From: an uncultured Piscirickettsiaceae bacterium
Lineage (GTDB): Bacteria; Pseudomonadota; Gammaproteobacteria; GCF-002020875
Assembly: GCA_964344135.1 (NCBI GenBank)
Contig: CAYFMF010000003.1
Coordinates: forward strand, 442 to 64,441
Reading direction: 5' to 3'
Length of the DNA: 64,000 nucleotides
Below are positions 53,758 through 62,957 of the stretch, piece by piece. The position numbers and the translations under genes were made by a program. Below the pieces are notes generated by a model. The model saw nothing but the letters and a program-made list of their open reading frames with translations, was not told the origin of the DNA and did not search any database. The stretch's first letter is position 1; each line of letters starts with the position of its first letter.

Positions 53758-53940
53758 CCGGTAATCTCACAACCGGCCAACCGGGGGAAATCGGAACATC
53801 AGGAGCTGCTAACATACTGGTGCAATATGGAAAAATCTTGCACTCTATTATTGGATACGTATGATTGATCTGAATAAACTGCTCTATCCATATGCAGAGA
53901 TCCGACCAGAAGAGTTGGCAACGCATAGCAGGGAGGAAAT

Positions 53941-54612
53941 ATGCTCGTAAAAATTACTGTTCTGTCACTGGCAGCTCTTCTTTCACCCATTGCCGGCGCC
54001 TGGGATGGTCTGGACCGTGGAGGCGAGATTGAGGAGTCAATGACACTCACTCCCGACATTGAGAACGGAAAAAAACTCTATAAAACCTGTGCCTTCTGTC
54101 ACACACCGGATGGGTGGGGCATGGAGCCCGGAATCGGTAAATACCGGGTTCCGGGAACCTATCCACAACTGGCGGGCCAACACCAGTCGGTACTGATCAA
54201 GCAGCTCTACGATATCCGTCAGCTCAATCGGGACAACCCCACCATGTACCCCTTTACACTGGCCCGCTATATTGGAGGTGCCCAGGATGTTGCCGATGTA
54301 ACCGCCTACATCACCACCCTCTCCATCAACCACTTCAATCAGCATGGGGATGGATCTGATCTGGCGCTTGGAAAAGAGCTCTACGAGGAGAACTGCGTCA
54401 AGTGTCACGGGGAGAATGGTGAGGGAGATACTGAAAACTTCTACCCGCGCCTCTCCAACCAGCACTACCCCTATATGCTGAGACAGTTTGTCTGGATCAA
54501 GGATGGAAAGCGCAGAAACGCCAACAGCAAGATGGTCAAACAGATCCAGAGATTTACCTATCGCGACATGAAGGCGGTCATTGACTATGCCTCCAGACTG
54601 GATGCCCAGTAA
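53941..54612 (+). CDS. Periplasmic diheme cytochrome c (c4-like)
   Basis: 223 aa. Signal peptide, two CxxCH motifs (CAFCH, CVKCH) in two cytochrome-c domains with Met ligand regions. Confidence 0.75.
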   Translation: MLVKITVLSLAALLSPIAGAWDGLDRGGEIEESMTLTPDIENGKKLYKTCAFCHTPDGWGMEPGIGKYRVPGTYPQLAGQHQSVLIKQLYDIRQLNRDNPTMYPFTLARYIGGAQDVADVTAYITTLSINHFNQHGDGSDLALGKELYEENCVKCHGENGEGDTENFYPRLSNQHYPYMLRQFVWIKDGKRRNANSKMVKQIQRFTYRDMKAVIDYASRLDAQ

Positions 54613-59331: not shown

Positions 59332-59510
59332 GGGGTGAACTGCCTCCTGCGCAAATTATTTCCTTGCATCAGAAGTTTTATTTGAATTATTATAGGAGTG
59401 TTCTGCGCGGGGGGCTGCCGGACTGATTAACCATCTATTTGACTCCTCCCGAATAGAGCAAAATTAATATTAATTTTAAATAAAATCTCTAAATAACTTT
59501 AGGAGGAGAT

Positions 59511-60107
59511 ATGAAAGCAACGAAACTTGCAGTAGCCGTTCTCGGCAGCTGTGCAATCAGTTTCTCTGCGTTCGCAGGAAACATGACAGGGGCTGACGGA
59601 TCCATGCTCGCCAACACCTGTGCTGGTTGTCACGGCACAGACGGAGCCAGCGTTGGTCCAGCCATCCCATCCATTGGTGGAATGTCTGCAACCTACATCA
59701 CCGACATGATGGCAGCATACAAGTCTGGTGATACCAACAGCACCATCATGGGCCGTATCGCAAAGGGCTACAGTGAGGATGAGGTTGGTGCGATCGCCAA
59801 CTTCTTCGCCGATCAGCCACAGTCCCGTGCAGACCAGTCCTTTGACAGTGCCAAGGTCGCCAAGGGGCAGAAGCTGCATGACAAGTACTGTGAGAAGTGT
59901 CACTCTGAGGGTGGCGCACTGGCAGATGACGATTCCGGCATTCTCGCTGGGCAGCTGATGCCTTATCTTGAGTACAGTATGGAGGATTTCCACAATGGTG
60001 ATCGCTCTATGCCGAAGAAGATGAAGAAGAAGGTCAAGAAGCTGAACAAGAAGGAAGGCGACGCTGGTGTTGACGCTATCTTCCACTACTACGCAAGCCA
60101 GCGCTAA
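59511..60107 (+). CDS. fccA: Flavocytochrome c sulfide dehydrogenase, diheme cytochrome subunit
   Basis: 198 aa. Signal peptide, two CxxCH motifs (CAGCHG, CEKCHS). Immediately upstream of fccB. Contains a Lys-rich insertion PKKMKKKVKKLNKKEG. Confidence 0.75.
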   Translation: MKATKLAVAVLGSCAISFSAFAGNMTGADGSMLANTCAGCHGTDGASVGPAIPSIGGMSATYITDMMAAYKSGDTNSTIMGRIAKGYSEDEVGAIANFFADQPQSRADQSFDSAKVAKGQKLHDKYCEKCHSEGGALADDDSGILAGQLMPYLEYSMEDFHNGDRSMPKKMKKKVKKLNKKEGDAGVDAIFHYYASQR

Positions 60108-60122
60108 GGAGGAGCTATAACA

Positions 60123-61451
60123 ATGAGTAAATTTAATCGTAGAGACTTTCTGAAGGTTTCTGGTAGTGCCGTAGGTGCCGCATCCGTTGCCGGTATGGGG
60201 CTGTATGCAGGTAACTCCTTCGCTGGCTCCAAGGGCCGCGTCGTTGTTGTTGGTGGTGGTATGGGCGGTGCAACAGCTGCCAAATACATCAAGCGCGCTG
60301 ATGCTGCCATTGATGTCACCATCATCGAGCCTAACAAGACCTACTACACTGGTTTCACCAGTAATCTGACACTCTCAGGCATGGTCACCATGGATCAGCT
60401 GGCTCACACCTATGAGGGTCTGGCTGCAATGGGAATCAACATTGTTCACGACGCTGTGACCGAGATCGGTGACAATGCGGTGAAGACTGCAGGTGGCGGC
60501 AGCTACGGCTTTGACCGCTGTGTGGTCTCTCCTGGTGTGGACTTCAAGTTTGTTGAGGGACACAGTGAGGAGGTTGCCAACAACTCCGTAACCCACGCCT
60601 ACAAGTCTGGCCACCAGATGAATCTGCTGGGGCAGCAGCTCAAGGCGATGAAGGATGGCGGTACAGTTGTAATTGCTGCACCACGCAACCCATTCCGTTG
60701 CCCTCCCGGACCTTATGAGCGTACCAGCCAGATCGCTGCCTACCTCAAGGCCAACAAGCCAAAATCAAAGATCATTGTTCTTGATCCAAAGGACAAGTTC
60801 TCCAAGTTTGGTCTGTTCCGCGAGGCGTGGTCTGTGCACTACGGCTTCGATGGTGCCCAGGATGGTGGTGAAAACTCCATGATCACCTGGGTCAAGGGTG
60901 CAGCCGGTGGTGCACTGGAGGCCGTTGAGGCTGACAGCAACACTGCAGTTGCAGCTGTTGAGGAGTTCAAGGCGGACGTACTGAATGTTATCCCCGACAT
61001 GAAGGCGGGTAATGTTGCCTCTGCCAATGGGCTGACTGATGGTGACTGGTGTCCAGTAGACCTGCAGACTTTCGAATCCAAGAAGCGTGCAAACATCTAC
61101 GTAATTGGTGACTCCAGTGCTGCCAAGGGTCTGCCGAAGTCTGGCTATGCGGCCAGCTCAGAGGCAAAGGTCTGTGCAGCAGCGGTTGTAGCGGCACTGA
61201 ACGGCAACTCTGCCCCAATCCCCGCCTACACCAACACCTGCTACAGTGTGGTTGCACCGAACGATGCGTTCTCTGTTGCAGCGGTCTACCAGCTGGCAGC
61301 AGACAAGTCGAAGGTCATGAAGGTCTCCGGCGGTCTGACTCCAAGCGGTGACAAGCGCAACGCTGCGTTCCGTGAGCGTGAGGTTGCCTATGCACTGAGC
61401 TGGTATGACAACATCACCTCTGATGCCTTCAACAACGCCAAGAAGTTGTAA
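60123..61451 (+). CDS. fccB: Flavocytochrome c sulfide dehydrogenase, flavoprotein subunit
   Basis: 442 aa. Tat signal SKFNRRDFLK, FAD-binding VVVVGGGMGGATAAKY. Confidence 0.85.
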   Translation: MSKFNRRDFLKVSGSAVGAASVAGMGLYAGNSFAGSKGRVVVVGGGMGGATAAKYIKRADAAIDVTIIEPNKTYYTGFTSNLTLSGMVTMDQLAHTYEGLAAMGINIVHDAVTEIGDNAVKTAGGGSYGFDRCVVSPGVDFKFVEGHSEEVANNSVTHAYKSGHQMNLLGQQLKAMKDGGTVVIAAPRNPFRCPPGPYERTSQIAAYLKANKPKSKIIVLDPKDKFSKFGLFREAWSVHYGFDGAQDGGENSMITWVKGAAGGALEAVEADSNTAVAAVEEFKADVLNVIPDMKAGNVASANGLTDGDWCPVDLQTFESKKRANIYVIGDSSAAKGLPKSGYAASSEAKVCAAAVVAALNGNSAPIPAYTNTCYSVVAPNDAFSVAAVYQLAADKSKVMKVSGGLTPSGDKRNAAFREREVAYALSWYDNITSDAFNNAKKL

Positions 61452-61495
61452 AGCAGTAGAGGCGTTGTCTTAACAAGCAACGCTGGAAAAAGAGA

Positions 61496-61525
61496 CCCTC
61501 AGAAGGCAACTTCTGAGGGTTTTTT
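61496..61525 (+). terminator. Rho-independent terminator after fccB
   Basis: ccctcagaag-gcaa-cttctgaggg followed by TTTTTT. Confidence 0.8.
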
Positions 61526-61556
61526 CATGAACATGGAAACAGAGTGTACGCTCTAT

Positions 61557-61826
61557 CTACAGCGCTTTCTGGACTACACTTGCCCTGACCATCCGCGGAA
61601 ACAGCCTTAGAACATCATCAACGGAGATCAGACCGTTATACATTGTAATCTCCCTTCTCTTCACCAGCTCCTGGATAATGACCCGCCGGACCTTCAGAAT
61701 CTCACACAGAAGGCAGGATGACATGAACCTTTTATTGCACCCATCGCAACTGAGCTCAATGGAGCAACCATTAATCAACTGATCCAGCTCTCTCTCAGAC
61801 ATACAATTCAAACCCCCTCTCTTCAT
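61557..61826 (-). CDS. Hypothetical small Cys-rich protein
   Basis: 89 aa (or about 81 aa from MSERELDQ). Cys pattern CSIELSCDGCNKRFMSSCLLC. Between fccB and soxA. Function unknown. Confidence 0.35.
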   Translation of the reverse strand: MKRGGLNCMSERELDQLINGCSIELSCDGCNKRFMSSCLLCEILKVRRVIIQELVKRREITMYNGLISVDDVLRLFPRMVRASVVQKAL

Positions 61827-61870
61827 CTAGAACTCCTGTCCCAATCATCACTCCAGTAGCAGCGGACGTA

Positions 61871-61917
61871 AATACGTATAACTACGTATTGATGCAAATG
61901 ATTCTCGTTACTATAAT
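61871..61917 (+). promoter_or_regulatory. Consensus-like sigma70 promoter (TTGATG-17-TATAAT) with an abutting 8-4-8 inverted repeat operator candidate
   Basis: aatacgta-taac-tacgtatt overlaps the -35 ttgatg (61889-94). 17-nt spacer. Perfect -10 tataat (61912-17). Confidence 0.5.
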
Positions 61918-61923
61918 GAAGCC

Positions 61924-62006
61924 ACATTTAGAGAGTAGTCGTTGAGTTTCCTCCCATAGATTGACGACTGTTGTTGCCGGCATATCAATGATATGCCGGC
62001 TTTTTT
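61924..62006 (+). ncRNA. Candidate small RNA, about 80 nt, between the promoter above and an intrinsic terminator
   Basis: The transcript would contain stem agtcgt/acgact enclosing a UUCCUCCC loop, then terminator gccggcatatcaatgatatgccggc plus TTTTTT (61976-62006). There is no + strand ORF for it to serve. Confidence 0.35.
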
Positions 62007-62013
62007 AACGGAC

Positions 62014-62045
62014 AAAAAAACCCGGCCATTGCTGACCGGGCTATC
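62014..62045 (-). terminator. Intrinsic terminator for soxA (minus strand)
   Basis: Minus-strand reading agcccgg-tcagcaatgg-ccgggtt followed by TTTTT. Confidence 0.5.
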
Positions 62046-62096
62046 GTCTTAATGGATTGTCGTCACAGGGTGAATCTGTGACAAGCTCCCAGAAGG

Positions 62097-62957
62097 CTAC
62101 TTGCGATAGGCAGGACCATTAAACTCCAGACCATTACTCATATAGGTATGGAAGTACTCCAGGTTGCGATACTCCCTGCTCTGGGCCTTGAATGGCTTGG
62201 CGCGTACCTGCTTGTTACACCCCCCGAAACGGCGGTGCAGGGTACCAAAGCCATCACCCGACTTGGACTTGCCTGACCACTTGGCACGGAATACCGGGAA
62301 ACCTGTGGTATGCCCCAATGCGGGAGAGAGCAGATCGGCACGAATATGCTGGCCTGACTGATAGACGTGGCAGTCCGCACAGGCAAGGTTGAGCTGTCCA
62401 CGCTTGGCATAGAAGAAGCGCTTGCCATCCTCATAGGCTGCCAGCGCCTTTGGATCATCAGGAATCACTACATTGACCTTTTGGCCACGCGCCTCATAGT
62501 TGATATAGGCTGAGAGGTGGGCCATCTTGCCCTTTTTCCACTTCAGTGGCTTCTCGCCATTCTCCTTACGACACTTGTTGATGTCCCCCTCGAGGGTCAC
62601 AACCTCACCACTCTTGGCATCCCAGTGTGGATAGCGGACACGCACTGCAGCAACATCATCTCCGAAGCAGCTGGCATAGCCATTACCGTTGGCAAAGGGC
62701 TTGTTCCACTCCTCTTCACCCTCTTCCACAAACTGCTCATAGGGGGGGAACTCCTCGATGGCCTCCCACTGCTGGCGAAAGGTTGGACTGATTGAGTAGA
62801 CCCCATTCTTGAAGTCACCCATCTCGGTCTGCGGGAACTTCTCTACAAAGTAGGCACGGAAGGCCTTCAAATCTTCTTCAGGGGTTGCGTGCACATTGGC
62901 TACAGCCATAGTCAGGGCGACAGCACATACACGCTTCAGGATAGTCCCGGCATTCAA
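62097..62957 (-). CDS. soxA: Sulfur-oxidation c-type cytochrome SoxA
   Basis: 286 aa. Signal peptide, heme motif CADCH, conserved SoxA C-terminal region. Downstream of soxYZ. Confidence 0.8.
   Translation of the reverse strand: MNAGTILKRVCAVALTMAVANVHATPEEDLKAFRAYFVEKFPQTEMGDFKNGVYSISPTFRQQWEAIEEFPPYEQFVEEGEEEWNKPFANGNGYASCFGDDVAAVRVRYPHWDAKSGEVVTLEGDINKCRKENGEKPLKWKKGKMAHLSAYINYEARGQKVNVVIPDDPKALAAYEDGKRFFYAKRGQLNLACADCHVYQSGQHIRADLLSPALGHTTGFPVFRAKWSGKSKSGDGFGTLHRRFGGCNKQVRAKPFKAQSREYRNLEYFHTYMSNGLEFNGPAYRK

Follow-up and report, generated by a model that had tools for sequence, protein, structure and literature searches.

A candidate base-pairing small RNA gene between fccB and soxA of an uncultured gammaproteobacterial sulfur oxidiser and its sister species

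Background

In NfeR1/alpha-r14, CCUCCUCCC motifs located in hairpin loops silence mRNAs by occluding the ribosome-binding site, and each of its three hairpins carries an identical CCUCCUCCC (PMC10746234). In the gammaproteobacterium Xanthomonas, the apical C-rich loops of the small RNA (sRNA) sX13 repress mRNAs that have G-rich motifs near the start codon (PMC3771888). The sX13 molecule is 115 nt long, Hfq-independent, and made of three stem-loops with CCCC or CCCCC. RsaE/RoxS and the mycobacterial 6C RNA are further sRNAs with C-rich loops that are functionally similar to sX13. A loop bearing CCUCC mimics the 3' end of 16S rRNA, and a free 5' tail, a hairpin, a U-rich linker, and a terminator ending in U6 make up the usual modular design of base-pairing sRNAs that act in trans. 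Lineage-restricted sRNA candidates are common. To our knowledge, post-transcriptional regulation is essentially unexplored in uncultured marine gammaproteobacterial sulfur oxidisers, and a literature search found no small RNA that controls the Sox pathway or that of flavocytochrome c sulfide dehydrogenase (FCSD).

The window analysed here is a 64-kb stretch of DNA from such an organism, in which a candidate regulatory sRNA had been proposed between fccB and soxA from inspection of the sequence. The element resembles alpha-r14/NfeR1 and AbcR1/2 of the alpha-rhizobia in being short and trans-encoded, with a promoter and a terminator of its own and a CCUCC(C) loop, and its putative operator parallels the control of NfeR1 transcription by dedicated regulators. 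It differs from them in its host (a gammaproteobacterial sulfur oxidiser rather than an alphaproteobacterium), in possessing one non-terminator hairpin and one UUUCCUCCC motif instead of three, and in showing neither an Rfam match to alpha-r14/AbcR at E <= 10 nor detectable sequence homology with them. Unlike sX13, it combines a single CCUCCC loop with an invariant 5' tail and with a U-rich linker before the terminator, a layout nearer to that of enterobacterial Hfq-type sRNAs, and no sequence or covariance-model similarity to sX13-type RNAs was detected. Likeness to the Fur-repressed, iron-sparing RNAs RyhB and PrrF extends to its size, the free-standing gene, the AT-richness of the promoter and a possible operator across its spacer, the haem-protein-rich locus, and the best loop match in the window, which falls on a cytochrome c ribosome-binding site. 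However, no covariance-model match to RyhB/PrrF was obtained and the palindrome at the promoter is based on TACGTA rather than being a Fur box. A Fur box over the promoter spacer was also considered and rejected, since its score of 13/19 equals background (14 sites in the window score at least 13/19 and 72 score at least 12/19). We regard the element as an uncatalogued, ordinary, lineage-restricted regulator candidate of a well-known kind.

The reading preferred here, to which a probability of about 0.6 was assigned as a whole, is that positions 61871-62006 would constitute a free-standing gene for a non-coding RNA of ~83 nt, transcribed from the + strand between a sigma-70-type promoter and its own intrinsic terminator and most likely acting in trans through base pairing with mRNAs. 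Its CCUCC loop would block G-rich ribosome-binding sites and thereby repress translation, the invariant 5' end may serve as a second or alternative seed, and a dimeric DNA-binding protein probably controls transcription through a conserved TACGTA-N4-TACGTA that overlaps the -35. In this reading, transcription, mRNA pairing, the part that serves as seed, the targets, and the identity and sign of the regulator are matters of inference. If expressed, the element would be a well-defined new sRNA of this uncultured marine sulfur oxidiser, and its position beside fccAB and sox together with the operator-like site would make it a practical entry point to the regulation of sulfide versus thiosulfate oxidation.

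Architecture of the candidate gene

The coordinates of all features are given in Table 1. The gap between fccB and soxA is AT-rich, as had been proposed (42-46% GC compared with 57% for the window), and the identity of the flanking genes was confirmed with Pfam. The predicted promoter was found on the + strand with 10/12 consensus matches. Only four sites in the window, counting both strands, reach 10/12, and a perfect TATAAT occurs only in the promoter of the candidate sRNA. The terminator follows the promoter at a distance of 58 nt.

Table 1. Features of the fccA-soxA region and, for segments of the candidate gene, the number of bases identical in the sister genome L005
Feature	Position	Strand	Identical in L005	Details
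fccA	59511-60107			Pfam-confirmed
fccB	60123-61451	+		Pfam-confirmed
89-aa ORF	61557-61826	minus		between the fccB terminator and the sRNA promoter
Segment upstream of palindrome			16/42	
Palindrome block	61867-61890		22/24	
Inverted repeat	61871-61890	.		perfect 8-4-8, AATACGTA-TAAC-TACGTATT; arms 100% complementary
Sigma-70-type promoter	61889..61917	+		TTGATG-17-TATAAT
-35	61889-61894	+	4/6	TTGATG
Promoter spacer			11/17	17 bp
-10	61912-61917	+	6/6	TATAAT
Discriminator			3/7	
Predicted sRNA transcript	61924..62006	+		~83 nt; start inferred from the -10, 3' end in the T tract
Core	61925-61962	+	38/38	CATTTAGAGAGTAGTCGTTGAGTTTCCTCCCATAGATT
Hairpin 1	61938..61968	+		8-bp stem, GUCGUUGA / UUGACGAC, 61938-61945 with 61961-61968
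Hairpin 1 loop	61946-61960	+		GUUUCCUCCCAUAGA, 15 nt; carries the anti-Shine-Dalgarno-like CCUCC
Segment following the core	61963-61975		9/13	
Intrinsic terminator	61976..62006	+		stem 61976-62000, T6 at 62001-62006
T tract	62001-62006		6/6	T6
soxA terminator	62042..62019	minus		faces the candidate sRNA
soxA	62097-62957	minus		Pfam-confirmed

The original prediction described the terminator as a textbook one with a 12-bp GC stem. The hairpin and T6 were confirmed, but the all-GC stem was not: the arms, GCCGGCATATCA and TGATATGCCGGC, are 12 nt each with one base between them, which amounts to 11 pairs and a 3-nt loop, and 7 of the 11 pairs are G-C. The sequence preceding the hairpin is TGTTGTT and the minus strand has no U tract; the terminator should therefore serve the + strand only. 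By strict criteria, three strong terminators are present in the 64 kb, namely that of the sRNA, one after a tRNA pair, and that of soxA. The sRNA terminator is an orphan, as the nearest stop codon on the same strand, that of fccB, lies 549 nt upstream with the fccB terminator between the two. The soxA terminator opposes it, and the expectation that the two transcripts would not overlap held, with predicted 3' ends at least ~7 nt apart. A cis-regulatory leader or riboswitch was considered and rejected: a strong terminator closes the element and no same-strand gene follows it, the next gene being soxA, which is convergent and encoded on the other strand.

The inverted repeat said to abut the -35 is present and shares its last two bases with that hexamer (an overlap of 2 bp). 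It consists of two TACGTA hexamers 10 bp apart, or one helical turn, with its centre at about -43.5 relative to the predicted start, and is a candidate binding site of a dimeric regulator. This position is near that of class II activator sites, and repression through occlusion of the -35 is also compatible with it. The palindrome occurs once in the window, with no second copy in the 64 kb even when 3 mismatches were allowed, so that no regulon can be defined, and no regulator gene was evident nearby. The palindrome may be an operator, as had been suggested; it is conserved in the sister species (22/24 bases), but it could not be matched to a regulator.

Predicted transcript and its fold

The start of the transcript was deduced from the -10 and may fall anywhere in 61922-61926. 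The 83-nt transcript 61924-62006 was predicted to fold with -30.1 kcal/mol (z = -5.2), and none of 200 dinucleotide shuffles was as stable; the corresponding RNA of the sister genome gave -27.5 kcal/mol (z = -5.5). The predicted layout comprises, in order, a free 5' tail of ~14 unpaired nt (ACAUUUAGAGAGUA), hairpin 1, a short U-rich linker (CUGUUGUU, less U-rich in the sister genome), and the terminator hairpin with its U6 tail. In this fold CCUCCCAU is unpaired in the hairpin loop, and the expected transcript of ~80 nt with an anti-Shine-Dalgarno-like loop corresponds to a predicted one of 83 nt whose loop carries UUUCCUCCC. The RNAalifold consensus of the two versions contained two helices, with the loop and the 5' tail unpaired. 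The stem of hairpin 1 includes U.G and G.U pairs, which become A.C mismatches in a minus-strand RNA, and the minus-strand RNA folds without this stem. A functional RNA would therefore be expected from the + strand, because the wobble pairs and the U tract work only there.

Comparison with the sister species

The one sister species available is represented by L005, a metagenome-assembled genome (MAG) of an uncultured Piscirickettsiaceae bacterium with ~94% identical SoxA and ~97% identical FccB. Its soxA and fccB genes are likewise convergent, and the candidate region aligns between them. A promoter and terminator scan of L005 independently called TTGTTA-17-TATAAT on the same strand and, on the corresponding strand, an 11-bp terminator with T6. 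Conservation of the promoter, hairpin, and terminator in related genomes had been named as a check of the original prediction; when it was carried out, all three were found to be kept in L005 on the same strand.

Fourfold degenerate sites of fccA, fccB, and soxA served as the neutral baseline between the window and L005 (326 of 436 identical, or 0.75). Against this baseline the identities listed in Table 1 have a distinct arrangement, with the palindrome block forming the upstream border of the conserved segment. The invariant core begins at the predicted +1 and spans the single-stranded 5' end together with the 5' arm and loop of hairpin 1. A run of 38 identical bases would be expected with a probability of 0.75^38, or ~2e-5, at a fixed position, and of ~1e-3 anywhere in the 220-nt alignment. 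The kept -10 and -35, the variable spacer, and the invariance from +1 form the pattern of a transcribed functional RNA rather than that of general DNA conservation.

In the terminator stem, one two-sided compensatory change (C-G to U-A) separates the window from L005, whose terminator loop is longer by 2 nt, and hairpin 1 shows one half-compensatory change of U.G to U-A. Structural support amounts to these two informative substitutions, because only two distinct sequences exist. At the level of the alignment, the core that would be transcribed is under purifying selection and the substitutions preserve the structure.

These observations bear on the alternative that no functional + strand RNA exists and that the region instead works at the level of DNA, for example as a site of protein binding or recombination, or is part of a minus-strand transcript (soxA read-through, or a promoter or untranslated region), the promoter and terminator being coincidental. 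A weak promoter-like sequence on the minus strand (TTGTCC-16-TATCAT, 62015..61988) is also kept in L005, and gene content between soxA and fccB varies among relatives, so that the interval appears recombination-prone. We nevertheless consider this alternative quite unlikely: conservation follows the logic of the promoter with invariance from +1, the terminator has changed in a compensatory manner, the U tract is present on the + strand only, the G.U pairs in hairpin 1 can form in RNA of the + strand only, none of the minus-strand ORFs across the region is conserved, and L005 has no downstream minus-strand gene before the fccB terminator. An independent small RNA gene on the + strand with its own promoter and terminator, as originally proposed, is well supported by this comparison, and that such an RNA is made appears probable, with good odds in its favour.

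Coding potential of the interval

The original prediction had placed no ORF between promoter and terminator. This stands insofar as the only ORF conserved between the window and L005, both strands considered, is one of nine codons on the + strand (MKPHLESSR in the window, MEIHLESSR in L005), the ATG of which lies inside the -10 hexamer and which has no ribosome-binding site. It required correction in that the candidate sRNA is overlapped on the minus strand by short ORFs of 33-34 aa and an ORF of 89 aa is present in the gap. The architecture of promoter and terminator, the polarity towards the + strand, and the lack of a conserved ORF are direct readings of the two sequences.

The overlapping minus-strand ORFs are not conserved (34 aa in the window and 11 aa in L005), are not hydrophobic, and begin 25 nt from the sole Shine-Dalgarno-like sequence. 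That the locus encodes a micro-peptide, or an antitoxin RNA whose type I toxin is encoded by a small ORF on the opposite strand, would agree with the retention of the nine-codon ORF in both genomes and with the minus-strand ORFs overlapping the RNA, and yet is very improbable given that the nine-codon ATG is part of the -10 with no ribosome-binding site and that the minus-strand ORFs have the properties just listed. The type I system as such was rejected, there being no conserved small hydrophobic ORF on the opposite strand.

The 89-aa ORF was present in all contigs of the window's species and absent from L005, where an indel of ~330 nt accounts for the difference. The scenario that had been given as a refutation of the sRNA, namely that the region is nothing more than the promoter or 5' UTR of a minus-strand small ORF, could be excluded because L005 retains the unit without the 89-aa ORF, and the ORF was for the same reason rejected as an explanation of the region. 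It is also unlikely to encode the regulator of the palindrome, from which it is divergently oriented, because L005 keeps the palindrome without it. The GC content of the ORF is below the genome average and its codon positions have a coding-like distribution (GC3 0.61 > GC1 0.47 > GC2 0.36). No Pfam, NCBIfam, or PHROG assignment was obtained, and a word-indexed search returned only the self match. An exhaustive HMMER search returned five small distant homologues (65-222 aa) with a common C-terminal ...MYNGLLD..VLRLFPNL motif. A single-sequence AlphaFold model was unusable (pLDDT 48). The ORF is probably a recently acquired small gene.

Possible mode of action and targets

Repression by Shine-Dalgarno occlusion is preferred as the mode of action because the CCUCC loop resembles the 3' end of 16S rRNA and because NfeR1/alpha-r14 and sX13 provide precedents; action of the predicted sRNA through this loop is given a little under an even chance. 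A duplex scan of the whole 64-kb window placed its top matches inside coding regions. A scan of the window for 8-mer complements yielded 35 observed compared with ~62 expected, and near gene starts 3 compared with ~1.4 expected. The best match in a start region was that of a dihaem cytochrome c gene at 53941 (GGGAGGAAA, -19.2 kcal/mol), a value reached by 27% of controls in which CCUCC was kept and the flanks were shuffled (p ~0.27, with 64 kb searched). The only other copy of GGGAGGAA in the window is the Shine-Dalgarno sequence of this gene, a perfect 9-nt complement to the sRNA loop. The sequence GGGAGGAAAUAUG at 53931-53943 comprises the ribosome-binding site and start codon of the gene, which encodes 223 aa and is the first of a cluster that also includes genes for a NapC/NirT tetrahaem cytochrome and for an ankyrin-repeat protein of 318 aa. 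Control of the two flanking sulfur-oxidation operons, which had been suggested from the location, was not borne out, as the target scans of the window were not above chance; what links the sRNA to sulfur oxidation is its position, because target predictions in the window do not exceed chance.

The invariant 5' end bears on a different alternative, in which the small RNA is real and works by another mode, such as binding or sequestering a protein, acting as an RNA sponge, or activating a target through its 5' end. Conservation of the whole 38-nt core extends beyond the loop, and nt 3-11 of the sRNA are an exact 9-nt complement to UCUCUAAAU in the fccA leader (59486-59494; p ~0.024, uncorrected, with several leaders examined). 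In the minimum-energy fold of that leader, the UCUCUAAAU stretch pairs with the fccA Shine-Dalgarno sequence, and the leader is ~97% conserved in L005. One variant, suggested by the modelled fold, is an activating anti-antisense mechanism, in which the sRNA 5' end would free the fccA ribosome-binding site from its predicted masking by the AUCUCU/AGGAGAU pairing. Set against these points, the leader fold is no better than shuffles (z = -1.5, not significant), the duplex of the sRNA 5' end with the leader is weak and rich in A-U pairs (-9.7 kcal/mol) and ranks only second among 58 start regions, and no protein-binding motif such as repeated GGA was found. The pairing between 5' end and leader offers no covariation to test because both partners are invariant. 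Another mode of this sort is rated unlikely.

The elements of the base-pairing model can be combined into a dedicated riboregulator of sulfur lithotrophy, located between the FCSD operon and the sox operon, in which the predicted 5' end would pair with UCUCUAAAU where this stretch is predicted to mask the fccA ribosome-binding site, the CCUCCC loop would repress cytochrome mRNAs such as that of the 53941 gene, and both actions would jointly switch electron-donor pathways post-transcriptionally, controlled by the regulator that binds the TACGTA palindrome. We give this elaboration low odds.

The fccA leader has further features of its own. The promoter and leader at 59373-59510 are ~97% identical to L005 over ~140 nt, compared with 75% at neutral sites. 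A hairpin with the arms UCUAUUU/GAAUAGA is located at 59434-59457, and its loop, CUCCUCCC, is complementary to the fccA Shine-Dalgarno sequence itself (AGGAGGAG). The leader also holds a G6 run and had no Rfam match. Judged from its sequence, it may be a cis-regulatory element. A common origin of the sRNA and the fccA leader hairpin (TCCTCCC..ATAGA) was considered and rejected, the alignment score of 17 being equal to the shuffle mean of 16.7.

Distribution and neighbouring elements

Several metagenome contigs come from the species of the window, and their intergenic region is identical to it. At a SoxA identity of at least 90%, the cluster holds only this species and L005; in L102, L103, and L104 the intergenic region is identical to that of the window or the species is the same. 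Searches of the intergenic region with blastn and nhmmer against 84 soxA loci of other species gave matches in L005 and in the window's own species only. When a covariance model of the two sequences was run over 641 kb, the best additional matches, in L050 and L065, covered the terminator only and lacked the loop. An exact scan of metagenome contigs for an 18-mer of the loop returned 17 matches, which were attributed to chance because the flanking stem was missing in all of them. More distant relatives (SoxA 75-83% identical) have different genes between soxA and fccB, and no homologue of the sRNA was detected with blastn, nhmmer, or the covariance model in those that still possess both genes. 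The predicted sRNA is known, on the basis of these searches, from two closely related species only. An Rfam cmscan of 61400-62150 at E <= 10 gave only terminator-like chance matches, and the scan of the whole window at gathering thresholds gave two tRNAs only.

Several related MAGs have soxA and fccB side by side and convergent. In L006, L009, L011, and L013 the two genes are separated by ~0.3 kb to 3.9 kb, with different gene content in each and a second soxYZ pair in L009, and from these comparisons the interval appears to be a hotspot of gene gain and loss.

A hairpin with the arms ACCCTCAGAAG/CTTCTGAGGGT is located at 61495-61520. As an A-rich run flanks one side and a T run the other, it should terminate transcription in both directions (of fccB on the + strand and of the 89-aa ORF on the minus strand), and this bidirectional terminator is kept in L005, L011, and L013. 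In the 3' UTR of soxA, between the stop codon and the terminator on the minus-strand transcript, a 7-bp inverted repeat (GTCACAG-N7-CTGTGAC) is present at 62062-62082. Its arms are identical in L005 but the loop has changed at 5 of its 7 positions, a pattern suggestive of a conserved stem-loop or of a protein-binding palindrome. The repeat overlaps a promoter-like TTGTCA-17-GACAAT, which has 10/12 consensus matches in L005.
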